A stretch of 62,750 bases of DNA, the filler included, from Reclinomonas americana ATCC 50394 (Eukaryota): assembly GCA_048213135.1 (NCBI GenBank). It is 4 parts of 2 records of this genome, joined end to end, with 100 filler letters (N's around TTAATTAATTAA, not from the genome) between each part and the next. Parts side by side here need not be neighbours in the genome. Positions count along the whole stretch, not along the records: positions 1 to 10,627 come from PS015387.1; 3 more parts are not named here. The stretch is one strand, 5' to 3'. A program made the translations under genes and the position numbers. The notes under the pieces were generated by a model. That model was not told the origin of the DNA and searched no databases. It was given only the letters and a program-made list of their open reading frames with translations. This document shows positions 1 to 45,100 of the stretch, piece by piece; position 1 is the first letter of the stretch; each line of letters begins with the position of its first letter.

Positions 1-46
1 CCTGCGTCGTATCGTCATGTTGGAGTGAGAGCGAGTAGCAACGCGA

Positions 47-1358
47 ATGGGTATGTCGTACCCCCGTCTCCCCACGGAGAAGGAGGCTGTCTCTGTGAAG
101 AATTTCGAAGATCTTCATCGAGAGATGACAGGTGATCGTGTTGTGAGACTCGATCTCAGCGAGGAAGCAGTTCCGTGTGTACACACGCACACACTCGCAC
201 ACACATACATACACACACACGCACATACCCACGCTCGAAATTGCGTACAGGCAGCAGAAGTCTCTCCTCAGGATGACGACACCTCTCCACAGAACAGACT
301 GTTGGATCGCTCTCCTCTGGTTAACGATGTCTTGTATCTCTTCCGTGGTGGATTTGAGCTCCGCGCACGTGTGCTCGTCGAGTCGTTCAGAGCCGTCTTG
401 GACCTGTACATGATTGGAGACCTAGAGTATTCTCGCCACCACGTTGTGTACGGAGGTCGTGGAGAGTTCAAACTTGGGGCGCAACAAGGTCAGGGGCCAT
501 TCTGCACGTTCACCTCCGGCAGTGGAAGCATCCATGTCGGATCGCGCGGCATCATCATTCGTCTTGGTGATGGATCATCTGCCGTGCGGTACATCGTGCA
601 ATATGCCGACCTCCAGCAGCTGCGTACGCACCGCATCTGCGGCACTGCATTCATCTGAGCGCCCAGCTCACTTCCCAGCTCACAGGTCTCCAGATCTCGA
701 TCTCGTTTCCAGGCCCAGGCCCAGCGGTGGTGCTGGCCATGGGTCAGTTGCTTCTCTTCCACTGCTGTGCTGCGTTTCGTATTCACAGCCACTCATTGTT
801 TGTGTGGATAGCGTGCATGGATCGCCGAGGGTTTCTGCAAACAAGGTTGGGCGACCAGAAGGCTGTTTACGTGAGTTTGCATGCAGTCTGTAAAGAATCT
901 CATGAACATCGCAGTGTTTTTCAATAACATGGAAGCAGTGGCCGGGGGTGGGCGACAAAACCAGGAAGCAATGTTACCGCGGGTTGTAGGGCTGCTGCTG
1001 GATTCTCGTTTGTGTGTCTGACCTCGAGCTCTGTTGCTGCGACTGCAGTGCAAGCTGCCTACGTGAACAACTGCGTGCAACATCTGAAACCAGAAGCCGT
1101 GCTTACAAACCCAGAAGACGTACAACCGGAGCATCTGAAAGGTTTCGTGTCCAAGTCCATCATGGCCACACACCACAGTCTTTCATTGCCGGTGTCATCG
1201 ATCAACCAGATTTGTTTGAAGAGGGCTGCAAGAACAACGTCGACGAATTTGCCGACCTTCTCCGACGGGAGAAAGTTAGATTCTGGAGCATGGTGGCCAA
1301 TCAAGTTTGGGCGTGGCAGATGCGTAAGCAAGTATCGAAGTTCGTAAAATCGTTGTGA
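47..1358 (+). CDS. Hypothetical spliced coding sequence(s), one or two genes, no recognisable domain
   Basis: Open exon-like segments (e.g. 251-658 AAEVSPQ...GTAFI; ~1050-1358 VQAAYVNN...GVIDQPDLFEEG...SKFVKSL*) separated by GT..AG segments such as the CA-rich intron at ~175-250. No family recognised. Confidence 0.35.
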
Positions 1359-1408
1359 ATGTGTGCGGAAGGCAATCGTCCTTGTCGCTGTCCCTGTCGT
1401 CGTCTGTC

Positions 1409-2581
1409 ATGCCATGGAGAGCAGAGGTCGCAGCAGCGGATGAAGTGCCTCTCATCGACCTCACGCTGGACGCAGAGGAGCGTGCGGCCGCCGAACGCAT
1501 ATCACATCTGCTGAAAGAAAGGCGACGACAGCAACTGAACAAAGAAAAAGACTTGCAGGGAGAGTGTGATGTGTTTGCGGGGCACGTGTGGACCGAGTTT
1601 GGTGCATGGGTGCGGCAGCAGCGTGCAGAGACTGATGGAAGTGCAGTGGAAGCGTCGTTGCGACGATCGTCAGTGGAACAACTGGCAGCGACGCTGTTGG
1701 CGCGCTTGCCACCGGCACAGTCGGTGTGGCAGGAGGTGGTGAGTGTGAGCAGGCGTGTGTTGGATGCAGCTGCAGCAGCAGCAGCAGTGGGGAAGTCGTC
1801 GGTGGATGGAGGTGTCGAGTGGAGGCAGCGTGTGCGCCACGGTGAGCGAGCAGTGTCGCACTTGCGGGAGGTGCTGGACGAGGTGGCTGTTGCGTACCAG
1901 CGTTGTTATTGTTGCTGCGGCATGCGGGCGTTCATTGAGCCACATGTGCAGTCGGCGGCCGCGCATATCAGTCTGGATGTGACGGAGCTGGGCGAGTGGC
2001 GTGATCTGGTGGTGCGCGCGCGCGGTGTCGCCCTTTTGTGCCAGCTGCGTGCTGATTGTCTCTTTCGGGGTACAGAAACGCACACTGTCGCAGCCTGTGC
2101 CGCCCGCCGCAGAGCATCGATCGTTGCGTTTCTTTCCCACATGAGAAGTTGTCAGCAACAGCAGCAGCAGGCAAGCTCATGCTGTGGTGGCACAGACGAC
2201 TGCTGGCGGCGGTGCGATCGACGCGGCGGACGATGCGCGCCACGCTGGTCGCCTTGACCGAGGCACTGCAGCGAGTTGCACCCGCCGTGGCCAAGCTGCA
2301 GACCGCCATGAAGCGTGTTCGCCGCAAGCCGCCTGCACCAAGTCGCTCGACGCAAGTTGTTACGCCGACGCAGCGGTGGTGGGACGCGCAGCTGGATCCC
2401 GTGCGACGGCTGCAGCAGTTTCGCATGTTGCGTTGCGTCGCGCGTCGTGTTTGTGCAGAGAAGTGTCGGGCCTCATTTGCTGTGCTGTAGGGTCGGCACG
2501 TGGCTGGCGTGGACAGAGCACACGCTTGCGGTCGTGTGGCGCGCATGGCAGCAGCTCATTGCGTCGGCATGGTGGAGGTGA
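1409..2581 (+). CDS. Hypothetical helical protein
   Basis: Long ORF MPWRAEVAAADEVPLIDLTL... continues in a second frame (LMLWWHRRLL...RLQQFRM) and a third (VGTWLAW...AWWR*) via plausible short introns. No domain recognised. Confidence 0.4.
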
Positions 2582-2710
2582 TGAATGCACACGGATTTGT
2601 TGTTCACCAAAAATCGTCTAAGTAAAATGTAACAAGAGCAAGAAAAAAGGGGGAAAAGCACCTAAACAAAAAGAAGCCGGCACCACCACCGACACCAGCA
2701 CCACGGCTGT

Positions 2711-4849
2711 TTACCAGCGCTTCTGGCTGCGCTTGCGGATGGACACCATCACTGGTCGCTGCGGACCGGCCACTGTTTGTCGCCCCAAGCGAGTGAGCAA
2801 AAAAATCTTGAAAAAAAGACAGCAAGCACGCACGCCACTCACCCATCGACTCGTAGCTGACTTTGGGGAAGTTGCTGACGAGCTCGACATCGTAGGAGCC
2901 GAACAGCACAGCCATGATGGTGCGGATTTGCAGGTACGCAAATGTCTCGCCGAGGCAGCGGTGCACGCCGCGGCCGAACGCGATGAACGGGAACTCGCAC
3001 TTCTTCTCCTCGTCGCGCGGCGGCAACCAGCGCTCGGGCTCGTAGTTGTCGGGGTTGACAAAGATATCGGGGGCGCGGTGCGAGGCGGACTGCAACGGGA
3101 GTCAGCAACAAAAGGGGAGATGGACGCTGGGAGAGAGCAGCGACACACTCACCGGCGACACGACGAGGGTGGAGCCGGCGGGCACGATGCGATCGCCAAT
3201 CGGAATGTCGACCTTGCAGTAGCGCATGAGCATGATCAGAGGTGGGTACAGACGCAGGGCCTCCTTGATGCACAGCTGGAGGTACGTCATGCTGGTGACC
3301 GAATCGTAGCTGAGCACACCGTCGTGCTCGCGCAAAACGCTGCCAATCTCGGTCTCGGCCTGCGCAAAGTCACAAGAAGTGTCAATTTTGAGTATTCTGA
3401 AGGGGGGAATGCATGGCATAGGCACGGGTGCACACGCACCTTGGCGAAGCACTCGGGGTGCGTGGCCAGCAGCGCAACCGCCCACGTGGAGGTGATGGAC
3501 GAGGTGTGCTGGCCGGCAAACAGCGTGCCGAGCAGCAGGCCGCAGATCTCGTCGTCGTGCAGGTACTCGTGATCGTGGTCCTTGTACTTGGAGTACATCA
3601 GCACGTTCAGCAGATCAATGTGCTGTCGTGGGGGGGATACAAAGGTGAGACGCGATGAACAGTGTGGCGCGCGCGAGAGCGGCGCCATGGCCACAACGCA
3701 ACTCCCTCCTCCTTGTTCTCGCGGCGCTTGCGCATGACCTCCTTGAAGACGCGGCAAATCTCGAGGCGAGCGGCATCGCGGGCGCGCGCCGACGGCGACG
3801 GGATCCACGGCAGGAAGAAAGTGAGCGGGTTCAGGCCCTCCTCCAGCGTGTGGTACAGCTCGGCGAACTTGTTCTCCTTCAGGTTGTCGCGCACCTCCTT
3901 GCCGAGCAGGCAGCGGCTGGCGGTGAGAATCGTCAACTCGGCCATGCACTCAAAGAGCTCGAACTCGCCGCCCTCGCCGAACCTGCGAAAAGGGAAAGGG
4001 GTGAGGAAGGGGAGGGGGGAAAGGAAAGGGAGGAGAGGGAGGAAGGGAGGGGGTAATGGGAGAGGAGGGAGCGAGNNNNNNNNNNNNNNNNNNNNNNNNN
4101 NNNNNNNNNNNNNNNNNNNNNNNNNNNNNNNNNNNNNNNNNNNNNNNNNNNNNNNNNNNNNNNNNNNNNNNNNNNNNNNNNNNNNNNNNNNNNNNNNNNN
4201 NNNNNNNNNNNNNNNNNNNNNNNNNNNNNNNNNNNNNNNNNNNNNNNNNNNNNNNNNNNNNNNNNNNNNNNNNNNNNNNNNNNNNNNNNNNNNNNNNNNN
4301 NNNNNNNNNNNNNNNNNNNNNNNNNNNNNNNNNNNNNNNNNNNNNNNNNNNNNNNNNNNNNNNNNNNNNNNNNNNNNNNNNNNNNNNNNNNNNNNNNNNN
4401 NNNNNNNNNNNNNNNNNNNNNNNNNNNNNNNNNNNNNNNNNNNNNNNNNNNNNNNNNNNNNNNNNNNNNNNNNNNNNNNNNNNNNNNNNNNNNNNNNNNN
4501 NNNNNNNNNNNNNNNNNNNNNNNNNNNNNNNNNNNNNNNNNNNNNNNNNNNNNNNNNNNNNNNNNNNNNNNNNNNNNNNNNNNNNNNNNNNNNNNNNNNN
4601 NNNNNNNNNNNNNNNNNNNNNNNNNNNNNNNNNNNNNNNNNNNNNNNNNNNNNNNNNNNNNNNNNNNNNNNNNNNNNNNNNNNNNNNNNNNNNNNNNNNN
4701 NNNNNNNAGAGAGAGAGAACAGAAGAAAATGGAGAGACAGAGATGGAGCACGCAAAGGAGAGAGAAGAAAGATAAGAGTGGCACAGTGTAACACATCGAG
4801 AATGAAAGGAAGAGAAAGATGGAGAGAGAGCACACGCAGATTCACAGAC

Positions 4850-4899
<50 letters not shown>

Positions 4900-6388
4900 G
4901 CAGAGGCAGAGCGCGCAACCGAGAGAGACGGAACAAGAAAGATGAGAGACAGCACCAGGAAGAGAAGAGGAACAGGCAGATGCACTGAAGAATGTGCAGA
5001 ATCACGGACAGAGAGGCAGAAGTGCACGCAAGCGAAAGAAACAAGACGAGAGATATGAGAGGGACAGTAGGGAACAGAACAGAGAGATGGAGCACACACA
5101 CACACAGGAGAGAGAAGCAACAGCATCGCAACTTCTGCGCGTAGTAGTTGGTGGCCTCCTGCTCGAAGATGGTCACAAAGGCCTTGTAGCGCTCGACAAT
5201 CAGGGCTGCGCCGACACAAGTGAGTTGCTTGCGGTGCATATCAAGGCGTGCATGACTGACTCACCAGTGTTAACAAACTGCAGCTGCTGGCGCATGACCT
5301 TCGGCTCCGCGTCGTACACAATGCCGCGGCCGAAAACCGGGATCACAAAGCGATACACCTGCACGAGGGAATGAGTTAGTGGTGTGCATGAGAATGTTCG
5401 ACTTGCGAAAAAACAATGCGTGAAGAATGAGCACCGAGCAATAGATAACACAACGAGAAAGCAAAGGAGGGGGTGCATGACAGAAGAAGGTTCGACTTGC
5501 GAAAATCACGAAAAATAAGCATTGCCATGACAACGTGCCCAGGAAGTGAATGCGCGAGAGAGAACAACACACAACAGAGGGAGAGAGAGAGAGAGGATGC
5601 ACTCGCACACAGATTCCACGCAGCAAGAGATGCCGTGCATCTCGGTTTCTGCGCACCTCACGCGGGCTCAGCTCGTCGTCCTTGCGGTTGAAGAAGATAT
5701 CGTGACGAGTCGGGTGCGTCAGGAACGTCATGCGCTTGCCGAGAATGCTCGCCGTAAACACATCGCCGTACTGAAAAGGAATCTTTTCAGCGAAAAAAAG
5801 TGCGAGAAGCCGCAAAAAAAGGGAGGAGGGAGGGACGCAACACGGCGACGGCCCTCAAGCAGGAATGCCACCGGATTCTTGCCAAACGGAATGAGCGTGC
5901 CCAACACGGGCATCCAGCTGATCCACTCCGGCGGCGCATTCGAGTAAATGCGCTGCGCGGAATGATGTGAGAACATTGAATGATCCGGTGCATCTTCTTC
6001 TTCTTCTTCGAAAATAAGAACACAGCACATGCGCGTCGACACGTGCACGCACGCACACAAAGAGAAGAGAGAGAGAATGGTGCGGAGGATCACCCACACT
6101 CGCAAAGTGTCATGATGATCTCGCGCGCGGATGATCACGCGCATGGAAGAGAACCCGCTCTTGCATGTGCAGAGAAGCAGTGATCACAAGCCGTGGAGAG
6201 CAAGATCACAGTGGCAAGGGTCGAAAAACAACAACAACGTAGAAAAGAGTGCGCGCACGTTTTTCGAAAATGTCGCACCATGTCACGCACACAAAAAAAC
6301 ACCCACTCACCACCTTGATCAGCGACCACAAGTACCGCACCACCAGCAGGCCCACAATCACCGCCGCAATGTCAAACGCCAAACCCAT
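2711..6388 (-). CDS. CYP51: Sterol 14-alpha-demethylase (cytochrome P450 family 51), multi-exon
   Basis: N-terminal anchor MGLAFDIAAVIVGLLVVRYLWSLIK; SRS1 SPREVYRFVIPVFGRGIVYDA; I-helix GTLFAGQHTSSITSTW; KEALRLYPP; PERW; heme motif FGRGVHRCLGE. GT-AG introns; the N gap 4076-4707 lies in an intron. Confidence 0.95.
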
Positions 6389-6482
6389 TGCTCCCACACA
6401 AACAAAAACAACAAGAAATGCAATTGTCCAGATTCTAAAGAGCGAGCAACAAAACATCTGTCCCCTTTCATAAACACACATT

Positions 6483-7238
6483 ATGCGCGCGCACAGTGCC
6501 GCCTTTGTGGTGGCCGTGGCGCTGAGTGTGATGACAGTGACGGTGATGATGATGGCAGAGTCGGCGCATGCCAAGACAAAAGTCGTCTTGGAGGCGCCCG
6601 GAGGATGATCTTTGGGTCGGGTGAGTGTGCACTCTCACTCACTTGCACACGCATACACAGCAAAGACACACAGAAGGCACGCGCAGTGCACAGAGTGAAG
6701 AGCCGCACTTGTGAACATCTCTCGTCATGTTCGAGAGCAGTTGGGCACTTTTTTCATACTTACTGATTCTCTTTGTGTTGTACGCGTGTTCTTATGCGCA
6801 GCGCTTTCCCAGTGTAAAGCAGGTGAGCTTATTCTTCATTCACGCGATGCCCATCTCCGCTGATGCTAACAACGACGACAACAACACAGTTCATCACTTC
6901 TCATGCTCGGGAATTGTTGCGCCTCCATCATTGTCTCACTGCGTAGTGTGGGCGCTTACTGATTCTCTGATGTGTGTGTCTGTCTCGTTAGCCCCGAGGT
7001 GGAGGTGTCGCACCGCAGCAGTGTGTCAGCGCGATTGATGTTGGTGGACGACAGCGATGCGTCGGGTGTGCCGTCGGATTCTGTGACGCTGCATGCCGAC
7101 ACGTCGATTGCCGACCTGTTGAGCATGGTCGGCGACTTTGTCGAGTCGGCTCGTGAGGCCAATGGGCTCGCCCTCACCGCCCAGCTGAAGGCGCAGGCCG
7201 AGCAGAATCCGTTCCGGCCGTCCACGTGTGGCGGGTAA
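6483..7238 (+). CDS. Sep15/SelM-family selenoprotein (143 aa, Sec at codon 42), signal peptide
   Basis: Exons 6483-6620, 6802-6822, 6890-6915 and 6992-7238 splice in phase to MRAHSAAFVVAVALSVMTVTVMMMAESAHAKTKVVLEAPGG-U-SLGRRFPSVKQFITSHAREFPEVEVSHRSSVSARLMLVDD...STCGG*. This aligns by eye to Sep15 ILEVCG-U-KLGRFPQVQAFV. TGA at 6606-6608; SECIS downstream. Confidence 0.88.
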
Positions 7239-7292
7239 AGCAACGAGCTTGTCTGCGAGGTGCTTTCTTGCTGCTCTTGTCCCTTTGCGTGT

Positions 7293-7372
7293 GAAGTCGT
7301 GTGAGGCCTCGTCTCCATCAAACCTCGGTGTCTTGTCGCACTGGAGGGGGAGCGTGAGCTGATTTGGATTTC
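7293..7372 (+). promoter_or_regulatory. SECIS element (type II, GUGA core) in the selenoprotein 3' UTR
   Basis: Helix I GAAGTC (7293-7298) / GATTTC (7367-7372); core GTGAG (7301) ... TGAT (7360); ~11-bp helix II with bulges; unpaired AAA at 7320-7322; apical mini-stem CCTC-GGTG / CACT-G-GAGG. Starts 55 nt after the TAA. Confidence 0.82.
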
Positions 7373-7480
7373 TTCTTCCACTTCTACCGCGGAGGGACTT
7401 GGGCGGCGAATGAAACGCACGTCGTTATTCTTCTAATGACATTGTTTCGGATTGTAATGGTGTGGGAGACGAGTGGTCAC

Positions 7481-10055
7481 TTAGGGTTCGGCCGCCGTGT
7501 GCTTTTGCGCTTTCCGGATGGTGAACGCGGAGCGGCGGGCGGAACGATCGACAGTGAAGCAGGTGTTCTTGATGTCGGGGTCGAACGGGGCGCAGTGAGC
7601 CAGTTCCCACACGCCGATTGACTTCCTCGGTCCCTCGGGCGTGTTGTGCACACACTGCTCCAGATCGATATCGTCGCGGTGCTCGAGTACCACTGGCGAC
7701 AAAAGAAAATCAGTGAGCGGGATCAACACCAACAGAAGACAGTTGTTGTTGTTGTTGTGCACGCACCATCCAGGAGATCCTTGATCATGCGACGATGGTG
7801 GCGCTCCGCATTCGCCGTGTTGAGGTGCAGGCCGGGGTTGGAGTTCACCTCGATCAGCATCGGTCGCCAGTCGGCGTCGATGAGAATGTCAAAGCCGAGC
7901 GGCTGGAACGCGTTGTCAATGTGACCTGTGGTTGGAGGGTGGTCAGTGGCACGGTGCACCGCAGAGGAAAGAGAGAGAGAGATAGAGAGGCAAACCGTCG
8001 CGTGGCCAGGCGGCGAGCGTGCGCTTGATGAGGTCCTTGATGCGCGGACGCAGGGTCTTGTCGTAGTAGCCGGCGCCCTTGACCTCGCTGGAAAGAGGGG
8101 AAGGCGGTGAGAGGCGGAAGAGGGAGGCGAGGGAAGGGAAAAGGAGAAGGAGGAAGACAATAGAATGGGAAGTAAACGAGAAACAAGAGAGCACGATGAC
8201 TGAGAGCAGCGAGTTGGGTGAGCACGAGATCAGCGAAACAAGTAAATATGCAGCAAGGCAGGTGAACATGAGTAGAGAAACAAAAGATCGCAACACTACT
8301 GCAGCAACACAAGCAAAACAAGAGAGCAGTGAGACAGTGATCACGTGGGCATAGACAGTCAGTACAGAATCGTGAAAGTATGAGCAGAGAGACAAGCAAG
8401 AAATGCGAGAACAGTGAGACAGTGATACGTGACGGGACAGGCGAACGAGGCAGCAGCGAGACAGTGTGTACGAGAGCAGCGAGACTATAAATATGAGAGC
8501 ACACACAGAGAGAGAGGCCAACGTGAGAGCCGAAAGACAGTGGGTACAAGAGCAGCAAGGAAGGAATGAACACGAAAAGTGTGGCAGGCGAGCGCGAGCT
8601 GGTGAGCACACGGGCATCGACAGGGGTGAGCAGTGGGCACGAGCAGTGGCCAGAAGAGCAGAGAGACGGGTGGGCACAAGATCAGGAAAGCAAGAGAGCC
8701 GTGAGATGAACAGGAGAACAGATCGTGCCTCGTCACGCAACTCCACATACTGGATGAACGTGGCAGAGTCCCACTGGTTCTCAGGCACGCCATCCACGGT
8801 GCCAAAGTCGTCGGACTGCAACTGCACCTGTGCGTTGGTGATGTGCCGGAAACTATGCATCGAGCACAGTGAGACATGAGAAGCGGTAAAGCATCTCGGC
8901 ATCCCACGCAACTTGTCCTTGATGGCGACTCCATCAGTGTCGTACTCGGACGACGAGAAGCGGCAGTAGTAGTCAGTCGAGATGTAGAACACCATGGGAT
9001 TCAGCGAGGTGACCTGTGCGCGTGCGGACGGTGAGTCGCGAGTGGCGTTTGCGGAGCGCTGAGCCGACGAACCAGCACCCACTGGCGAATGTCAAATTTG
9101 TAGCCGCGGATCAGCAGCGGCGGGTCAATGTACCGCTGCACCACAAACGTGCTTGGAATCGGCCTCGTGTCCACATGATCCACCGCCTCGGCGGCATTGT
9201 CGACGAGGAAAATGCCTGGCCCGCACCAACATAATCAGCGAGAAGTGAGCACACACACACGGACTGATGAAAGTTGACGCACCGACACCGCGACCCAGGT
9301 TGGCCTGCTTGACGATCCACGCCTCGCGCTTCACAGGCGTCAGACTCGCGTCGGCACCCACCTCCACCGCCTCGGTGGCACGCTGCACGAACGCTCTGCG
9401 CTCCTCATCGTCGACACCGGTGGTGAGAATGTAGGTCTCGGGTGAGAACTCGGCCACAGCCGCTTTGCCGTCTGTGCGTGGAGCGGGAGGGCGACCTCAC
9501 ATCAAAACTGGAGTGAGATCGCATGTGCCACGCAATGCGCACGCAACAAGCAGACTCGAGTGTGCGGACCATCTCGGCCTTGTTGTCGAGAGTGTGCGCA
9601 TTGCAGAAGTGATTGACCAGCTGTCGATGAGGCGTGATGGGCACCACACGGGCGTAGGTGTAGCTCCACTTTAGGTTGGCGGCTTGTCTGCAGTGGGGTG
9701 ATGAGCACGGGGGATGATGTGTTTGTGTGGGGAAAAGAGAGAGAGAGAGTAACAAACTTGGTGAGTTGGCGTGCTGGTTTCCATCCGCGCGCGTCCAGCT
9801 CATCGCGCAGCACCTTCATGCCACTGGTGCTGTCGATCCAGTACAAGTACTGCCAGCCTGTGCGAATGTCAGAGAGAGAGTGGGGAGAGAAAGGAGGCCA
9901 AGAAAGAAAGGACCTTTGCGATTGAATGCATACGGCGGCTCTGCTTCTTCGTCCTTCTCGCTCGCCGCCGACGACTTGCTGGCGCAGTCGGCGCATGCAA
10001 TGAGAGCGAAGAGGAGGATGGAGAGGGAGACGAGGGCGAGAGTGTGTCGGCGCAT
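7481..10055 (-). CDS. Tubulin-tyrosine-ligase-like (TTL/TTLL ATP-grasp) protein with N-terminal signal peptide
   Basis: Motifs LVNHF, [72 protein letters not shown]. N-terminus MRRHTLALVSLSILLFALIACADC. Confidence 0.9.
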
Positions 10056-10322
10056 GAGTGAGAGGCGGTCGGAAAAATAGGTTTTGGACATTCGGTGGAT
10101 CGAACGCAAGAATTTGAAAGCCCTTTGGCTGCGTGCAGGTCAGCGCCTTGAAGGGGATGATCGTATGGATGCATCCCAGACTGCGGAGGAGGAAGTAAAG
10201 GATAAAATTGCAGGGGGAAATAATGCGATCCAGAAACTGGCGCATGCAATAAATACCGATATCGATCGCGATTGCAACTAACAACAACAACTTTACTAAT
10301 CCAAACAGCAGCAGCTGTCTTG

Positions 10323-10627
10323 ATGACCAAGTTCAACCGTATCCAAAACATCAACACAGACACCAATCTTGAGGCAGCAGCAGGTTCCTTGTGTGTTTGT
10401 GTTCGCTCTCGGAGCTCCGAACAAGTCGAGAACTGCGATCTTCACCGCACAAGCGTGGTTGACCACGTGCTTCCCGAAGGCGATCACCCAGAGCAACAAC
10501 ATAATCAGGGTCGAATGGAAGGGAATTAAGGGGAATGGGTTCATGGAACGGCTTTCGAAGGCGGAACAGAAGTACGAGTCTGTGGACACGCCGTTGCCAA
10601 CGACGAGACTCAGCAAACATATTGTTG
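10323..10627 (+). CDS. 5' fragment of hypothetical gene truncated by scaffold end
   Basis: MTKFNRIQNINTDTNLEAAA, then a probable intron, then AWLTTCFPKAITQSNNIIRVEWKG...SKHIV running into the linker. Confidence 0.35.
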
Positions 10628-13265: not shown

Positions 13266-16200
13266 TCATGTCGTCTGCAGTGTCCTGGCGCCGGGTCCAC
13301 CTGGTCCGCGACCCCATACGCGGAATGAGCTGTCGGAGCTGCAGGAGACCAGGTACTTGCCCTTGCTGTCAAACACCACATCCTGCACGCAGTCCTCGTG
13401 GCCGGTGAGCTCCGTCGCCAATCTCATGTCGTCCGTGTCGAAGCTGGCGAGGAAGAGGATGAGGAGGAGCAAGTCAGCGTGGTGGAGGTCATTCAGCATA
13501 CAGTCGTCGGTTGGAGACGCAACATCTTCACAGTCTGGTCGTCACTGGCCACCGCCAAGTACCGGCCGGAGGGATCAAAGGCACCGCGGTTGGCTGGGTG
13601 CTGTCCGGCTTCGCCTCTCGTTCGCTCTGCCACCATGCGCACATCCCATAGCACCACCACGCCGTCGGCATCGGTCGACGCAATGGTGTCTCCGCGCAGG
13701 TTGAAAAAGGCCGAATTGCAGGCGTTGCCGTGGCCGTAGAAGGTCTGAATGCAGAGTGCCGTGCGTGCATCCCACAACGACACAGTCTTGTCGCCGGAGC
13801 AGGTGCACAGGTTGTTGGAGAAGGGCTGGAAGGTGACAAAATTGACGGAATCCACGTGACCGCGGAATGTCTGTCGGCACCGTTCGCTGCGCGACCACGT
13901 GTGGTGTGAGTCTCTTCCTACTACTCTCTTGAGAAGTCAACGTCGCCACAGTACCTGTTGAGATCCCACAGCTTGGCGGTGTGATCCAGCGAACACGATG
14001 CCAAAAAGTCACCGCTTTCGTGGAAGGCGCACGCCCACACGGCTTGAGCGTGGTCCGAGAAGGTCACCGAGCAGCAAGCATGCGCAAAGTCCCACAGCTT
14101 GATGGTCCCGTCGCCCGACGATGTCGCCAAGTGGGTGCCACTGGAGCGCATGAGGAGGTGAGCGAGGGGGGTCGGAGAGCAAGAGGGAGAGGGAGAGGGA
14201 GAGGGAGAGGGAGAGTGAGAGGGAGAGTGAGAGGGAGAGTGAGAGGGAGAGGGAGAAGGGAGGGAGAAGGAGGGAGAAGGCAGGAAGTAAGAAGAAGTGA
14301 GAAGAAAACGGAAGAGAGAAGGGAGATGCGAGAGGGAGAGATAGAGACAAGGAGGAGGAGGAGGAGGAGGCGAAGAAGAGAGAGAGAGAGAGGAAGAGGG
14401 AGAGGAAGAGGAAGAAGAAAACGCAGGCGTTGATGATGAAGATGAAGCAGAAGCATAGAAAGAGGCAGCAGGAGGAGAGGGAGGAGGAGAACAACAAACA
14501 ACAACACCAACAACGATCAAAAGAAGAAGCGGAAACTCAACAACAGAACGAGCAAAAGGGAGGAAGGATGAAGAGGACGGCGCTTCTCTTCTTTCGCTTC
14601 TGGTTTTCTCTCTCACATCGCCATCGCTCTGCATCCCATCAAGACACACACGCACCGTGGATGGAAATCGATGCAGGAGAGCCAGTCCTTGTGTCCGTCG
14701 CCACTCATGATCAGTGCGCCCTTCTCCAACGACCACATCTTCCACGTGGTGTCGTCCGAGGCCGTGGCCAAAATGTCCTTCTTCGGGTGCAACGCCAGCG
14801 AGCTGATGCTCATGGCGTGCGCCACATTGATTTGACCGGGCATGGAGAGCGAGTCCAGCGGTGCCGGATCAATGACCATGTGCAAGAAGGGATTCTCCTG
14901 ATCGTCCGGCGGCAACACACTGTCCTTGCCGCGCTTTCGTCTCTGCGCACGAAAAGAAATCGAATGAGTGAGCATCATCACGACTCTTGGTGGTAGTTGT
15001 GACGCAACTGTGCTTGACTCGGCCGGCTTGCTGGTGGGCGACTTGTCTTGACTCAACAACGCCACCTCCTGCTCCAGCGAGGTCACCTTGGCGGCCAGCT
15101 TGTCGCGCTCCAACCGTGCCATCATCTTCTCCTTCATGGCCGCATCGTACTTGCGCTTCAGCTCGTTCATGGCCGGCTCGAAGCGGTCAATGTGTGTCTT
15201 CAGTCGCTTAATGTCCTTGATCAACTTGTTCTTCTCCTGCACCACTCGTTGGTGGTGCATGCGATGCATGTCACGCTCGCGTCGTAGCTTGTCCCAGGTG
15301 TTCTTTGCTTTTCTGTGACGTTGGGAAGGCGCGTTAATGGACAAAATGGGAGAGAAATATTCAAGAAGTGCACGCAACGATGCAATCGACTGCGCCTGGC
15401 TCAGCTCTGTCTCCAACTCGGCCGCTCGCTCCTTCAGGCGGTCATTCTCCACGTACACATCGGGTACAACAGAGGCCAAGTCGGCAGCTGCGCCAGACTG
15501 CGACTTTTCGTACCATTCCGACTGCGCGCAACGCAAGTGGGTTAGCCGAAGGAGGGGAAGTCGAACTGCTTTGCTTGTCTGTCTCTTAATTGGTCTCACT
15601 CGCACACACTCACTCACTCACTCGCATACTCACCCGTGCACTCACTAACGCACTTTACCACACACTCCCTCGTTCAGTCACTAATACATCAAAACCACCC
15701 ACGCACTCGCTCACCAGTTCAGTCACTTACTCTCACAAACGTACTCACTTTGCTCTATAGACACTCACTTGCTCATCTGACACCTCACTCACTCAATCCC
15801 CTTTCCCATCTCTCTCTCCCTCTCTCGCTCACCTGAAACGCATCAAGCGTGCGCTGCATGCCCGCACGAATCAAGTAGTTGCGCATAAAGTCCTCAATCA
15901 CTTCCGGTCGTCGCACCACCTGTGGCCGCAAATCGCTCGCCGATCCCTTGCCGCGCGACAAACCACCAGCACCACCGGCCGCGCCACGTGACTGCTGCGC
16001 CAATCGCTTCTCCTCTGCAGCAATGAAACAGACAAAAGAGTCAATAAAATGAGGAGAGAAAGGCAGGGCGCAGTTGAGAGAGCGAGAGATAGTGTGGGAG
16101 AGACAGGCACGTCAAGAAACGATGTACAACGCGTGAAGAAGACTGGGCGCAAGCGATCGAGACAGAAAGCGAAGCCCACATACAAGACGTAGATACCGAT

Positions 16201-30400: not shown

Positions 30401-33400
30401 ACAGGCTCTCTACAGGCAGATGATGGGCTTGGGACCTGGGGATGCTCATGAACCTTCTCTGGCCTCACTTGGCGATGGTCAGTTGTTTACAGACTTTGGT
30501 GTTGAAGTTCCTCTCTCATGAGTTGTTGTTCTTGCTGTTGTATTTGCAGACGAAGTGCTGTCGAGCGAAGACAGGAGCAGTGTGAGCTCTGAGTCGGATT
30601 TCGAAGATAATCAGCCGTTGCCTGCTGCACCACATGAACAAGAGCAGCGTATCGGTTCTTCAAAACAAAAGGTCCATATGGCTTTAACTGTCGAAGGTAA
30701 GCGACTTGCAGCAGCCTTCTTCCGTCAACGCACACTCACATTATTATCTTGCGACAGAGACTACGGGCGCCGATTATATCCATCAGGCGGGCTCCAAGCG
30801 CACCGCAGCATCGGGAACGAACGCCAAACGCCACCAGCGCCGGGAATCTGAGTCAAGCAGCGCAGGTCATAAATCGCGGAGGAATTCAGGCGCTGTTTCG
30901 TACCTTGACATGATGACGAACGCTTCGAGAAACTCACTATATCGCGACTTCATATTTGCAGAGTATAGCATTGTCACGAAAGTCCACACGCAGACGAGGT
31001 CTGGTTGCGACACGACTACGCTGTCCACGTCACACACACACAAACACTCATTCCATAATTTTCTTGCGCAGTGGGTGCACACATCGCGGAAGACGGGTAC
31101 GTATACTGGTCACTGTGTCGACCGCCGGCCTGTTGCTCTGGGTCTCACCCTATTTCCCCCTCTGTTTGTGCAGAATGTCTTCGAACAGCTCTGATACACA
31201 GCAGTCCTCCAACGGGTCGTCACGCAATAGCCGCGATTCGCTTCGATCTGGAATGCTCCGCTCGTCCATTGTCCGCGACAGAGTTGCGTGGCTCATGTTG
31301 GCTCACCTCGTTCCGTGGGTTGTCGGCATACCCATAATGACCCTGTGCAGAATTCGACTGTGACGCAAGCTCATGTTGCTGTTATGATGTTGGCCGTCGG
31401 AAGCGTTGCCAGTCTCCTTTTCCTGGTAGTCCTGACTCGCGGCGAGGCGCGAGAGCTGAAGAGACTTCACGAAGAAGTCTTTGATTCCATTCAACGCGCT
31501 CGGTATGCTGTAATATGCCCTATTTGCACCCGATTCTGTCGATTGTTGACGTGCAATGTGTCCCAGCAATGCACGCTACCACATGGCCACTGATCTTGTT
31601 GAGTTGCTACTTGTACTGGAGTAGCGCGCGTGTTTCCGTTTTCCGTACTCATCAACTGTTGTCTTGAAGGTTGGAGTGTGGTCGGATCTCCGAATCAACA
31701 AAGGCGTTGACAATGAGAGCACCCTCGAACGGCGAATTGGTTTGCGAGAACACGTCAATCAACTACGCGTCATCCTCACTGCAGCCGGAATCCAAACGTT
31801 CGTGAAAGAAGCCGGTGACAAGATGAACGCTCAGTACGCGGTGTGGACTCCATTTGGACTCGCGCGCAAACTCGACGCGCCAATAGCCGGCTTGGACTAC
31901 GCCAGTTTATTGACGGACTGGGCAAACGTTTGTCGCCCCCCATTAGTTTTCTGTTCCTCAGGCACAAAAATTAACGTGCGCACGTGTTTTTGTCTCGTCA
32001 CAGGAAATATCCGCACTTACGGGCCCTGTTTACATGACTGCTGAGATGTGGGATACCAGATTTTACGCTATCGTGCGGAACTCTCTATTCGGTACCGCCA
32101 ACTCAATCGACAATATCGGAAAAGCGGCAGCGCTGTTGGCACGACAGCCTGGTGTCAACTACGATGTCTTCGCATGGATTCTTGCGGCAGCGTTTAGCGG
32201 GTGAGCTGCTTGCTTGTTGGCTGCGTGCGAGTGCTGATGATGACTTTACTTATACTCCTCGAAACAGCGGTGCCGTGGTCCTTGTCCTACTCTTCATGCC
32301 ACTGACACTGCATCTGCGCTACATGGCCACCAGAGCCGTCGACGCTTTCTTTGTGCTGCCGCGCTCTGTCACCGCTGGTGTTGCCTCGAATATCTCCGAT
32401 TTCTATCTGTCATTCATTGAGCAGTCGGAGACGCACCGGCAGGTTTGTCGAGGTGTGTACGTCTGTGGTTCTGAGAGGATCTGAAGAGTGTTGTGCCACT
32501 GTGTAGGGTGTCCATCCGTCGACTGTCACGCAGCCACGCTACTTGCCGACGCAGTGCACGCGAGCTGACTGGCAGTTCCTGCAGAACCTGATGCTGCGCG
32601 CCACTGCTCTTGGTCTCGTCATGCTTATTGCCATCGTGATGTGTGGGTGCGTATTACATGCATGCTTCCCGAGTCATGCTCCGAGGAGTATTGTTCGCTC
32701 ACTTCCATCTCCACGGAACAGTTACTCTGGTTCAGTTGCTGGTCGAGAGGCCGCTCGTGTAGTCGACGGCAACTGGCTGAATAAGGAACGCACGACGACT
32801 CTCAGCCGTCTCACGCACATTATCCGTGTGTTCTCGGTACCGGATCTGCTAATGTTTGGCGACGATGAGCTGATCGATGAATTCCGCACAACTTTGGCTG
32901 AGGTGAGAACACTGTCTGATGTGATACTACTGAGCCACACAACACACTAGTGCACTGACTCACACGGGCATTCTACACAGGCAAAGAGATTGCACATACA
33001 GGAGTTGGAGTATTTACCGACGATGCCGTGGGGTGAAGGTTTTGTGTCAGCGGCGTTGGTTGTCGTCGTCTGTAATCTAGTAGTACTCAAGCCGTGTCCA
33101 ACAGAAAACCGAGAGAAACTTTCACACGTGCACACGCGGATGCGCTGCTCGCCAGACCAGATCACTGACACCGTTAGTGACGAATATTTCCTCACGTGTT
33201 CTTCGTGGGGTGAAATGGTACGGCAAGCCACTGAGAGTCTAGCACACCGCAGAGCATGCTTCTCACGAGGGCGCAGATCTCGCGGATGTTTGCTCGTTAT
33301 GACGAATTTCTCGCGGTCATTGAAAGCGGCCACCGATGGACGCTGGATGAACTACACCCGATGCTTGAGTTCCTGATCGAGACCGGCGACTTGATTGACG

Positions 33401-36313: not shown

Positions 36314-38204
36314 AGAGAGAGTACGTTAGTTGTTGTTGTGTGGAGAGAGAGAGAGTAGTAGAAAGACGAGAGAGGAGGAGGAGAGAGAGAGAGGGTGAGA
36401 GCGTGTGTGTGAGAGGTGGTCGTACNNNNNNNNNNNNNNNNNNNNNNNNNNNNNNNNNNNNNNNNNNNNNNNNNNNNNNNNNNNNNNNNNNNNNNNNNNN
36501 NNNNNNNNNNNNNNNNNNNNNNNNNNNNNNNNNNNNNNNNNNNNNNNNNNNNNNNNNNNNNNNNNNNNNNNNNNNNNNNNNNNNNNNNNNNNNNNNNNNN
36601 NNNNNNNNNNNNNNNNNNNNNNNNNNNNNNNNNNNNNNNNNNNNNNNNNNNNNNNNNNNNNNNNNNNNNNNNNNNNNNNNNNNNNNNNNNNNNNNNNNNN
36701 NNNNNNNNNNNNNNNNNNNNNNNNNNNNNNNNNNNNNNNNNNNNNNNNNNNNNNNNNNNNNNNNNNNNNNNNNNNNNNNNNNNNNNNNNNNNNNNNNNNN
36801 NNNNNNNNNNNNNNNNNNNNNNNNNNNNNNNNNNNNNNNNNNNNNNNNNNNNNNNNNNNNNNNNNNNNNNNNNNNNNNNNNNNNNNNNNNNNNNNNNNNN
36901 NNNNNNNNNNNNNNNNNNNNNNNNNNNNNNNNNNNNNNNNNNNNNNNNNNNNNNNNNNNNNNNNNNNNNNNNNNNNNNNNNNNNNNNNNNNNNNNNNNNN
37001 NNNNNNNNNNNNNNNNNNNNNNNNNNNNNNNNNNNNNNNNNNNNNNNNNNGTACGTGTACGTAGTACGTAGTACGTACGTACGTAGTAGTAGTAGTAGTA
37101 GAGTATAGTAGTAGAGAGAGTAGAGAGAGAGAGAGAGAAGGACGGTTCGAGAGAGAGAGAGAGACAGAAAGAGAGAGAGAACGACTTGTTTTGTGGTTTG
37201 GTGACCGTGCGAGAAAAGAGGGAGTATTGACAATCAGACAGACGGAGGAGAAGGGGAGAGAAGGAAGGAGCGTGGGAGCGAAGCGGCTTGTTTGGAGGAC
37301 AGTGGGTGCTGCCCATTTAGTTAGGAGACAGTGCAGGAAGAGGGGCACGGATGTGCAGACGGAGAGAAAGGCGAAAGAAATGTACGAGAGAGCGAAGGGG
37401 AGAGAGGGAAACGCAGATTATTTGGAGGACGATCGTTGCTGACACCACGTCACTGCATGTAAAGGAGAAGGAAAAGACAGGGAGCTGGTAGATAGACAGA
37501 GAGAGACAGAGATAAGAAGAGATCAGGGCTGTTGACACTGTTTTTCCTTCCGCAGGCTCTGCATACATCGCAGTGTCTGGCATGTACTATCCGAGAACGG
37601 ACCACAGTTCTTCTGTGGTTGATTGGTGCTTGGCTGTGCGGCGCATGCTGACAGAATTTGAAGCCAAGGTCGGCAGGAGTGAGGAAAGCACGCCATCTGC
37701 CCCTGTCGTGCGCTCATCATCGCGTCTTTTTCGTTCTCTCAGACGGGACTGGAAGTGTTGTACAGAATCGGTGTCAACACGGGACCGCTCACGTCGGGTG
37801 CGTACACTCTGCATCGCTGTGCTGCGGTGCAGATCGAGTTCTCACGAGCTCCACAGGCATTGTTGCCGGCCTCATGCCCACGTTCGACGTGTACGGCGGT
37901 AAGTAGTTTCTCACTGTCAATGCTCCCTCCGTTTTCGCGCGAGCAGCGACTGATCCAAGATGTGCACGCGCACAGATGCCGTCAACATGGCATCAAGAAT
38001 GGAGAGCCTGAGTCCGCTCAACCAGATTCAGATTTCCGAGTCCACGCACGCTCTCGTGCGCAGTCACTACGACGTGGAGACGCGCATGGTTGAAGGTGAG
38101 ATGATACGTTTTTTCTGTGTCACGCGGCTCGGAAGCTCACAACACGTCGCTACGCAGTCAAGGGCATTGGTATGACTTCAGCGTTCGTCGTGCACGATCG
38201 ATAG
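27407..38204 (+). CDS. Large multi-TM receptor (TmcB-like N-terminus) with 3 PAS domains and one class III nucleotide cyclase domain
   Basis: Many hydrophobic exons; YPENAELAALYSQFLLEVKQD; PAS segments IESVNHTFCRLLGY, DAIVVCDTKGIILEANEAMRSLFGY, DAIFWCEPDGTICDCN; cyclase ERVKTIGSAY, RIGVNTGP, FDVYGDAVNMASRMES, VKGIG. Single-gene continuity is inferred. Confidence 0.85.
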
Positions 38205-42160: not shown

Positions 42161-45100
42161 ATGAGCGACCTTCTGCGGAGCTGTGGCGAGAGGTGTGTAT
42201 GTGACTGCGTGGAGTGCTGTCTGTTGTGGCGGGAGATGATGGGATGATTGATCTGTCACACACACCTATGTTCGCCCAGTACGTCGACGCACGCAGAGTG
42301 GTGAGCGGCGGGTGCCAGAACGTTGTTGGAGAAGTCTCTTTGTCTCTCGCACACTCACTCTCTCCCGCTCTTGTTCTCACGTGCGCAGCGCGATGACATC
42401 AAGTTGGTGACAGAGGCCTGCCGCACACTCCAAGTGCTCACGGACAGCATGTCTGGTACGCCGTGATCTCTGTCTCTCTCCCTCCACTTCCACCCACAAG
42501 TTAGTCACCTCTACGTGTGCACACAGTGAGACCTCGCGATCGTTTTCTCGACGAGAGCGACATGCGATCGCCACTGGTGTGCATGAAGGGATCGGTGCCG
42601 TACTCAGTCGGCGGTGTGGTGAAGCAGTGCCCGTTGGCCATTTGGATCCCACGCTCGTATCCCGAATCGTGCCCGCTGTTTGTTGTGCGCCCGTCGTCGC
42701 GCTCGACCGAGCCCATGTGCCTCAACGCCAACAATCGGTGGATCAGTGCTGACGGTCTGCTGCCGTTGTTTGTTTCGCCTCTGTGTCTGCGTGTGCTGAC
42801 TGTGTGAACAGGTGTGGTACAGCACGAGTACCTGTCGGTGAGAGTAGTGTTGTTGTCAGATGATGCAAGGTCGTGTCTCACAGGTTCGTACAGACGTGGG
42901 AGTCGAATCACGGCCTGCTTCCGATGGTGGCCATCTTGCGTGATTTGTTCTCCACCGTGCCGCCACTGGTGCCAATCGCATCAGAAACTCTGCCAATGGC
43001 CACCGCCACAGCGCCGTCTGCGTCAGTAGCTGCCGCCACCGCTGCTGTGCCAGTGGAAACGGTCGTCGATGTTGTACCGCAACGCGTGGTGACTTCCGGG
43101 CGCACCCGCATCGCGACGACAACAGCCACAACAGCAGTGCAAGCAGCAGCGGTGCCACCTGTGTCGACCGCGGACGTTGTGGATATTACACGCACACGAA
43201 GTGCGCGAGTGGGTGCTGGTCGTTCTGCGATTGAGCCCTCGGCGCCACCACCACCACCACCACCGCTTCAACCGTCACGAATGCCATCTGCTCCCCCTCC
43301 GCCCCTCCCTCCTCATCCTCCGCCGCCGCCGCCGTCAGCTCCGATCCTTGCGTCGGCACCGACCGGTCTACCGGCACCTCGTCCTCGCATCGATCCCCCA
43401 GACGAGGTGCCGTTTTCAGTTTTGGGTTCGCCACCGACCGCTGCCACGTATAATCGTCACCCGCCGGCGCCAACAGCGCCGACTACGGTGACAGTAGCGC
43501 CAACTGTGCCGTCGCCTGGAGTCGTACGGAGACCCTCGCCGTCGGCGGCTGTGATTACGACGACGACAACGCCAGCACCTGTTGGAGTTGCGCGGAGACC
43601 CTCGCCGTCGGCAGCTGTGACTACGACGACGACAACGCCAGCACCAACGGCACTTGTTGGAGTTGCGCGGAGACCCTCGCCACCTGCATCTGTGACTACG
43701 ACGACGACGACGACGACGACCGCAACACCAATGGTGCCTGTTGGAGCTGTCCGGAGACCCTCGCCGCCGGTAGCAGCTACGACGACTACCACGGCGTCGA
43801 CGGCACCTTTTGGAGCTGTCCGGAGACCTTCGCCACCTGCTGCTGTGACTACGACGACGCCTATTGGAGTTGCACGGAGACTATCGCCGCCTGCTACTGT
43901 GACTACGACGGCGATTGCGACGGCACCAACACCTCTTGAAGGCACACGGAGACCCTCGCCGCCGGCATCAGTTACAACGACGACGACAACAACAACACCC
44001 TCGGCAACAGCTGCTGTTCCTGTTGCTGCATGCCGGGCTTCTCCACCGGCAGCATTTGGCGCAATTGCGCGAGCTGATCCGCCTGCAGCCAGCGCGGTCA
44101 CTTTGCCATCGCCACCACCACCGCCGGTGACTGCCGAAGCGCCTTCTCAGTCGTTGCTGTCGCTGCTTTCGAGTGGCGATCGCACCACCCCGGCCGCCAT
44201 CCATCTTCCCATGTCATTGTGGCAGGTAGAGCAACACAGAACGAGCCTCTTGTTTCCCTTGGTGTACGTGTGTCACAGCCAATTTCTCGCTGCAGGTTCC
44301 TGCCGACGACGACGACGATGACGATGATGATGATGACGAGGATGATGACGAAGCCGATGATGAGCGTGACCATGTCGCCCCGAAACCCCTCGGCGGGTCT
44401 CCGCCTGGAAAGGACGCTGGAAGGAGACCACGTCCCCTTCCTTCTGCATCTTCCTCATCGTCGTCTTCTTCAGCCTCCGCACCGCCACACGCACCACCCG
44501 ACGAAGTGGTGAGCACTCCTCGTGTGTACGGCAGTGCGGAGGAAACGGAGCTGGCCGAGCCGCTTGATCCCGCGCTAGTTGGCAAGGACACTTTTCAACT
44601 GGTGTCCGAGTTGCGTGCGCTGCAGCCGCTGGAAGAGACAGCAAACCGCAGGTTACATGATCTGCAGTACTTGAGCAAGACTATGTACCGGCGGTGAGCG
44701 GCGTTTCGTTGCCCACGATACACGCAAGCTTCTTCGGCCCCTGATCGATTCTCGCAGGTCTGCCGATCGAGCCGACCGCGACCGCAGCCTCACGCAAGTG
44801 CGCGGCGAAATGGACGAGCTGAAGGAACGCAAGAAGCAGATCTTGCGCGTGCTGGTGCAACGAGCCAAGTCCGGCGGTCTGCAAGTGCTGGAGGACAAGG
44901 ACATTTACCTGGCTCTGTTGGAAGAAGTGGATCTCATGTCGCACGACGTGTGGCTCACTCACCACGTGTACCAGAATGGCGACTATCGGTTCGCGGCTTC
45001 GTCCTATTGTTGCTCTACTACCCGCAACAGGCACACTGACAAGTTTCGCGCGTACGTGCAGCTCACGGATGGACATGTTGTGTGACATGGAGACTGCGGT

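Follow-up and report, generated by a model that had tools for sequence, protein, structure and literature searches.

Does the in-frame TGA at positions 6606-6608 of a stretch of the Reclinomonas americana ATCC 50394 genome encode selenocysteine (Sec), and if so, in what kind of protein? The stretch analysed, hereafter the window, is 62,750 nucleotides long, filler included, and joins four parts of two records of GenBank assembly GCA_048213135.1, of which positions 1 to 10,627 come from PS015387.1. The TGA lies in the motif A-P-G-G-U (U, Sec) near the N-terminus of a small protein resembling Sep15 (SELENOF) and SelM (SELENOM), redox proteins of the endoplasmic reticulum (ER). A first interpretation of this locus, made from the DNA alone and referred to below as the sequence-only reading, had seen in it an independent Fep15-like protein or a new subfamily. 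The explanation that we favour, with moderate confidence, is a real, transcribed nuclear gene of this jakobid for a small secretory-pathway Sec protein with a thioredoxin-like redox domain of the Sep15/SelM type and no partner Cys, its UGA being recoded by way of a hairpin similar to a form-2 Sec insertion sequence (SECIS) element.

The gene has four exons on the + strand between 6483 and 7238. Its spliced frame of 432 nt specifies a 143-residue protein when TGA is translated as U, and runs unbroken from the ATG at 6483 through the TGA at 6606 to the TAA at 7236, across three GT-AG introns; after the TGA, 101 codons are open. The gene is transcribed, as shown by P0001, an 86-residue open reading frame (ORF) of the R. 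americana expressed sequence tag (EST) EC786382.1 (EukProt) that is 98% identical to exon 4 over 81 residues. P0001 reads ..G-E-F-P-E-V-E-V.. across the exon 3/4 junction, which fixes both splice sites of intron 3, so that exon 3 ends at 6915 and exon 4 begins at 6992. The features of the gene are listed here, the profile comparison being a hidden Markov model (HMM) alignment described below.

6483..6620, + strand: exon 1, with the ATG, a hydrophobic predicted signal sequence, the first strand of the redox domain, A-P-G-G-U and four codons after the TGA; based on the ORF listing, the donor GTGAGT at 6621 and the HMM alignment, which continues into exons 2-4.
6483..6572, + strand: predicted signal peptide of 30 residues, with a 20-residue hydrophobic core and A-H-A before the predicted cut; by inspection.
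6594..6608, + strand: A-P-G-G-U motif (GCG CCC GGA GGA TGA), in which the TGA at 6606-6608 is the proposed Sec42, in frame with the ATG at 6483.
6621..6801, + strand: intron 1 (181 nt, GTGAGT...CAG), with CTGAT about 30 nt before the acceptor; junction drawn from the frame and the HMM alignment, not from a transcript.
6802..6822, + strand: exon 2, seven codons for a segment of helix 1; from the frame and the HMM alignment.
6823..6889, + strand: putative intron 2 (67 nt, GTGAGC...CAG).
6890..6915, + strand: exon 3 (26 nt), its donor after 6915 fixed by P0001; the model with this short exon scores higher.
6916..6991, + strand: intron 3 (76 nt, GTTGCG...TAG), spanned by P0001, with a branch-like CTGAT motif about 30 nt before the acceptor.
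6992..7238, + strand: exon 4, with the rest of the domain, a helical C-terminal extension and S-T-C-G-G; TAA at 7236-7238.
7227..7229, + strand: codon of the lone Cys, Cys141, which P0001 also has.

A longer exon 3 with its donor at 6942, which would add nine residues including a second Cys, is ruled out by the P0001 junction and by its lower HMM score (7.6 vs 15.0 bits). Because donor 6915 rather than 6942 is supported on both counts, the protein has one Cys only. This residue, Cys141, lies three residues from the C-terminal end, where S-T-C-G-G and the stop are written TCC ACG TGT GGC GGG TAA at 7221-7238; the TGA is codon 42.

Relationship to Sep15 was measured against a set of control sequences, obtained by scanning metagenome and metatranscriptome contigs with a degenerate pattern of the Sep15 helix 1 motif. 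All ten control loci (L001-L010) encode Sep15 with an in-frame TGA, a Cys-rich N-terminal domain and the redox domain, and the three that were scanned with Pfam matched PF08806 with E values of 5.6e-30 to 5.9e-33. A search seeded by one of these loci returned 25 further Sep15 proteins. Nineteen Sep15 sequences were aligned (alignment A1), four mispredicted rows (P0023-P0026) were dropped, and a domain HMM was built from the other 15. Over positions 10-53 of this HMM the spliced jakobid protein scored 15.0 bits (independent E value, for one sequence, 1.9e-6). With the same HMM none of 2000 shuffles of the mature chain exceeded 5.0 bits, and the 667 six-frame fragments of the window, delimited by TAA/TAG (122,269 residues, TGA as Cys), scored at most 4.4 bits. 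The global mode of hhalign gave an alignment of 76 columns with 26% identity (probability 27%, P 1.3e-4), and in both the hmmsearch and the hhalign alignments the TGA at 6606-6608 stands in the Sec column of the Sep15 family. The sequence-only reading had compared the protein with Sep15, SelM and Fep15; these two alignments support a Sep15/SelM-like protein with its Sec at the family position. Measured by these scores, the resemblance to Sep15 exceeds chance, and we think it quite likely that the protein is a true homologue with the Sep15/SelM fold. For calibration, a profile of the whole 19-row A1 gave 148 bits with fly Sep15 (2a4h) and 26 bits with mouse SelM (2a2p). By its 15 bits the jakobid protein appears as a real but remote relative, farther from Sep15 than SelM is, a rough comparison, since the two Sep15 profiles used differ in length.

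The best sequence match to Sep15 is helix 1 (G-U-x-L-G-R-F-P-x-V-x-x-F), where the jakobid protein is closer to Sep15 than to SelM and has one extra Arg. The L-x-L-L-D-D strand is also shared, and Sec stands at the same column. Genuine Sep15 mRNAs carry a form-2 SECIS in the 3' untranslated region (3'UTR), where the jakobid gene has a candidate for one. There are differences from Sep15 as well: all 15 intact Sep15 rows read C-x-[U/C], whereas the HMM aligns a jakobid Gly to the Cys column; the Cys-rich UGGT-binding N-terminal domain, present in every full-length control sequence, is absent; and the jakobid protein has 30 additional C-terminal residues, ending in Cys-Gly-Gly. With SelM (PF08806, 2a2p) it has in common a layout in which a signal sequence is followed directly by the redox domain and then by a C-terminal extension. 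Active-site spacing is also alike, x-G-G-U in the jakobid vs C-G-G-C(U) in 2a2p, which was solved as a U-to-C construct, and the K-W-x-T-D..E-F block that is invariant in Sep15 is missing from both. In contrast to SelM, the first Cys of CxxU is Pro. The partner Cys of CxU/CxxU, which helps to define the redox motif of the family, is therefore missing under either alignment: Pro stands where SelM has its Cys, and Gly where Sep15 has it. For that reason we class the protein as a variant, alike in fold and in the place of Sec, rather than as a regular member.

The termini set the protein apart as well. Its N-terminal 20-residue hydrophobic core is predicted to be an ER signal sequence and could also be a signal anchor. 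After the predicted cut A-H-A/K (residues 30/31, by inspection) the mature chain would have 113 residues with exactly one Cys. As merely 11 residues, all of them Cys-free, separate this cut from Sec, there is no Cys-rich N-terminal domain. At the other end the chain closes with ..P-S-T-C-G-G and has no K/HDEL-like or xDEL tail. On all these points (A-P-G-G-U, no partner Cys, a single terminal Cys, no Cys-rich domain, no xDEL tail) the sequence-only reading and the spliced model agree. Whereas the jakobid tail is ..T-C-G-G, that of SelM is of the retention type, and SelM is held back by an HADL-type tail. Secretion of the jakobid protein is a conjecture drawn from the absence of a known retention signal. 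Among the control sequences, many arthropod-like Sep15 proteins (L003, L005, L007, L010; P0018, P0023-P0026) have a C-terminal extension that is acidic and closes with N-E-L or N-E-I. Such tails look like an ER-retrieval-type signal; the vertebrate-like L006 has none.

Within the Sep15/SelM family, Novoselov et al. 2006 are said to have described Fep15/SELENOE as the member with Sec and without a partner Cys, targeted to the ER by a signal peptide. SELENOE originated at the root of the jawed vertebrates or of the vertebrates and, as far as the available text of the two sources goes, is not found outside them (PMC13134290; PMC3316567). The jakobid gene cannot therefore be its orthologue, and since SELENOE arose at that root, the likeness to Fep15 is one of analogy, not descent. 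Independence from Fep15, one part of what the earlier interpretation had put forward, thus holds up; another part, a new subfamily, does not gain support, as no relatives were found in our searches. By the available text of PMC9344019, SELENOF carries CXU and is retained through its Cys-rich UGGT-binding domain, that is by a partner and not by a tail signal, in line with what had been assumed for Sep15, and SELENOM has no Cys-rich N-terminal domain and carries CXXU. The available text of Lobanov et al. 2007 places Sep15/SelM in green algae, a diatom and Dictyostelium, and describes no Cys-less protist form. The jakobid variant is known from one organism, and a Cys-less protist form of Sep15/SelM is probably new.

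How might such a protein work? Under the explanation that we favour, the UGA at codon 42 would be read as Sec, which we judge likely, directed by a 3'UTR hairpin that lies some 55 nt past the stop codon. The protein would enter the ER, and Sec42, at the start of helix 1, would be the sole redox centre of the fold. It would attack an oxidised substrate (a disulfide, sulfenic acid or peroxide) to form a selenenylsulfide or selenenic acid. Because Sec has no neighbouring Cys, this intermediate would need to be resolved from outside the motif, and the resolving thiol could be Cys141 on the Pro-containing, probably flexible tail (intra- or interchain), a partner protein, or a small thiol. That Cys141 itself takes this part is a guess, and a doubtful one. 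An AlphaFold2 (AF2) model of P0001 alone, and so a partial one, with a predicted local distance difference test score (pLDDT) of 61, has two strands followed by a long helix of about 33 residues and a Pro-containing tail.

Recoding of the UGA calls for a SECIS element, and the room for one is limited. Downstream lies a convergent gene of the tubulin-tyrosine-ligase (TTL) family (PF03133, 7481-8229, minus strand), whose TAA at 7481-7483 restricts the 3'UTR of the selenoprotein candidate to about 240 nt or less. The window was searched with a scan of our own, which looks for UGA and GA flanking a single stem and for unpaired AA at a suitable distance. In relaxed form it recovered the genuine element at 9 of the 10 control loci and gave 26 matches in the window (121,956 nt, both strands), so that about 0.05 would be expected in a 3'UTR of 242 nt. 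One of the 26 lies there, and its parts are as follows.

7293..7372, + strand: candidate form-2 SECIS from our own scans and folds, about 55 nt past the stop codon.
7293-7298/7367-7372, + strand: putative helix 1, 6 bp (minimum-free-energy (MFE) fold 7292-7373).
7301-7304 (G-U-G-A) opposite 7360-7363 (U-G-A-U), + strand: putative core, from the fold.
7305-7316/7349-7360, + strand: putative helix 2, ten pairs and one U.U.
7317-7322, + strand: putative internal loop AUCAAA, from the fold.
7323-7331/7338-7347, + strand: putative helix 3, 9 bp.
7332-7337, + strand: putative apical loop of 6 nt, from the fold.

In the MFE fold the core is a symmetric 6x6 loop with tandem A7304.G7361 and G7303.A7362 plus U7302.U7363. 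In the order of its parts the candidate resembles the form-2 SECIS (RF00031): helix 1 is followed by a core of non-Watson-Crick pairs, UGA facing GA, and then by helix 2 with about 11 layers, an internal loop rich in A, helix 3 and the apical loop. It differs from the control elements in being GC-rich, whereas they are AU-rich. Among the 14 relaxed matches on the + strand it is the only one with a UGAU 3' core, which 5 of 8 distinct control elements share; its GUGA core is also found in the genuine control SECIS of L010, which has it in place of AUGA. A strict version of the scan gave three matches in 121,956 nt, of which the other two, at 61520-61479 and 41007-40955 (minus strand), lie inside long ORFs and were taken as chance. 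Another possible element in the same 3'UTR, with AUGA at 7410 and GA at 7468, was rejected: it has mismatches adjacent to the core, AA 22 nt off and a very asymmetric loop, and fails both scans. Five other relaxed matches of the window fold at lower energy than the candidate, at -19 to -28 kcal/mol (15989-16077 (+), 56927-56853 (-), 31385-31462 (+), 46814-46739 (-) and 44334-44409 (+)). A SECIS at 7293-7372 is plausible and falls short of being established.

Several observations weigh against the explanation that we favour or parts of it, and they are given here with the alternatives on which they bear. In the first alternative the protein is the same and Cys141 is a handle for covalent dimerisation or for partner thiol-mediated ER retention, Sec being recycled by external thiols. 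ER retention through an exposed C-terminal Cys has a precedent in ERp44 and IgM. The position of Cys141 suits such a part, three residues from the end and behind the predicted helix of about 33 residues and the Pro-containing tail, and the protein has no other retention signal. Vertebrate Sep15, too, is retained by a partner and not by a tail signal, according to the available text of PMC9344019. We consider a handle of this kind possible, though on the improbable side.

A second alternative is that the gene is a relic or is not recoded: the TGA would be a stop, the product a 41-residue pre-peptide, and the downstream frame a decaying remnant in a lineage without Sec insertion. Here the SECIS results count against us. 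No SECIS was recognised by Rfam at E<=10 in 6000-8200, 7230-7700 or 7275-7390. R1, a covariance model of seven genuine animal Sep15 SECIS elements (alignment A4), had no match at E<=10 anywhere in the window, whether filters were used or not, and on the 3'UTR alone gave fragments of at most 4.6 bits, none over the candidate. In stability the hairpin does not stand out from its shuffles (z -0.57), 49 of 200 of them folding equally well. Its AA stands 15 nt past the core UGA vs 11-13 nt in the controls, and its helix 3 has 9 bp vs 3-5 bp, mostly 4. The strict scan criteria, moreover, were written after the candidate had been seen and recover 1 of 10 control loci. In the window no tRNA gene was found, tRNA-Sec included, and Pfam matched none of 99 long ORFs to a family of the Sec machinery (SPS2, PSTK, SepSecS, eEFSec, SBP2). 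No report of a jakobid selenoprotein was found in searches of the literature on selenoproteins, selenocysteine or SECIS in Reclinomonas, jakobids, Andalucia godoyi and Discoba/Excavata/Euglenozoa (including PMC4342817 and PMC4561486).

The EST adds to this side of the balance, since its ORF and the upstream exons are one base out of frame with each other. P0001 begins M-L-G, a start that is reached only with one more base in the G run near 6910 (6903-6915) than the window has; a 1-nt error just before the exon 3/4 junction must therefore lie in the EST or in the assembly. We take the EST to be the erroneous one, because the version in the window keeps exons 1-3 in frame with exon 4 and fits the family profile on both sides. 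P0001, the sole database protein for this gene, is accordingly a frame-shifted fragment that hides the Sec-containing N-terminus.

Several features are difficult to reconcile with a relic. The frame beyond the TGA has stayed open for all its 101 codons and through three introns, and most of the HMM score comes from the part after the TGA. A SECIS-shaped hairpin stands in a short 3'UTR where about 0.05 matches would be expected by chance. As for Rfam, in a control its SECIS_1 model found 4 of 9 genuine Sep15 SECIS at E<=1, missing the other 5, and all 9 fell below the gathering score. We regard a relic or non-recoded gene as unlikely.

The third alternative concerns descent. The gene could encode a genuine, lineage-specific small secreted Sec protein that is no homologue of Sep15 or SelM, in which G-U-x-L-G-R..F-P-x-V-x-x-F resembles Sep15 helix 1 by convergence. 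Consistent with this, the local HMM alignment is limited to positions 10-53, the K-W-x-T-D..E-F block that is invariant in A1 is missing, and the hhalign probability is just 27%; the 15 bits also fall under the 26-bit cut-off of Pfam for PF08806. Pfam assigned no family to exon 1 or exon 4, each searched alone. A phmmer search of PDB with exon 1 or P0001 gave no Sep15 or SelM and only a transhydrogenase subunit at E 0.77. Foldseek of the partial AF2 model (P0001 alone, pLDDT 61) had no match below E 1 in PDB. In the ESM Atlas, the C-terminal 81-86 residues gave a best score of 0.79 to unnamed clusters and no named match; thus Pfam, PDB and language-model searches with this part of the protein found nothing.

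Searches for relatives went the same way. With exon 4 against 1.84 billion representatives, phmmer had P0001, the organism's own EST protein, as its sole true match, and word-index and metagenome-locus searches with exon 4 returned only P0001 and P0002. The latter was rejected as spurious: it has 1681 residues, weak repeated matches to the tail and no Cys at the matching place. P0002 is built of repeats of about 64 residues, each ending in E-Y-N-P-Q-R-P-S-F-A-G. As these searches found no homologue beyond P0001, there is no sign that the TGA, the motif or Cys141 is conserved, which also counts against the explanation that we favour. On the other side, the match to Sep15 goes past the helix 1 motif and takes in both the strand that follows and the L-x-L-[LV]-D-D strand; the global alignment covers 76 columns at 26% identity with the elements in the same order; and the partial AF2 model gives strand, strand and helix in the expected order. 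SelM, an accepted member, is likewise without the K-W-x-T-D block and scores only 26 bits with the Sep15 profile. Convergence strikes us as a poor bet.

Last, an assembly or gene-model artefact, in which a sequencing error made the in-frame TGA or the continuity of the frame, has in its favour the 1772 N in 11 gaps of the window and the one-base difference from the EST in the G run near 6910, but we consider it very improbable, as the TGA falls exactly on the family Sec column, the frame of the window fits the HMM on both sides, and one error would need to make both features together.

The gene lies in a compact neighbourhood. Upstream is a divergent P450 gene on the minus strand, which we take to be CYP51-like, with its start near 6390 and Pfam PF00067 pieces at 2607-3949. 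The starts of the two genes are about 90 bp apart (6390-6483), which suggests a shared bidirectional promoter. On the downstream side some 110 nt separate the SECIS candidate from the TTL stop, so that the 3'UTRs of the two genes have to be very short unless they overlap. The 11 runs of N in the window include 4076-4707 and 36426-37050 and nine shorter ones, with several paired 44-N runs; long (GA)n tracts occupy the region around 5000-6070, and assembly quality near the gene is modest.

The locus also bears on how such genes are looked for. Protein databases hold only the truncated, frame-shifted P0001, and therefore searches at the protein level will probably miss small selenoproteins whose Sec is N-terminal, so that a lack of homologues there means little. 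A bolder extension, which we offer as speculation and would not expect to hold in full, is that jakobids use Sec and that this gene founds a separate Sep15/SelM branch that lost the CxxU Cys independently of SELENOE: a secreted or loosely retained one-Sec oxidoreductase, recycled by the Cys of its C-G-G tail in the manner of the "swinging tail" of thioredoxin reductase, and served by a SECIS with an unusually long helix 3.

If the explanation that we favour is true, Jakobida, a branch deep in the eukaryotes, would have its first documented selenoprotein, and the map of lineages that keep Sec would be extended. There would further be a second, independent example of a protein of the Sep15/SelM fold that works with Sec alone, which would bear on the function of ER redox proteins of the Sep15/SelM type and on their need for the Cys of CxxU.

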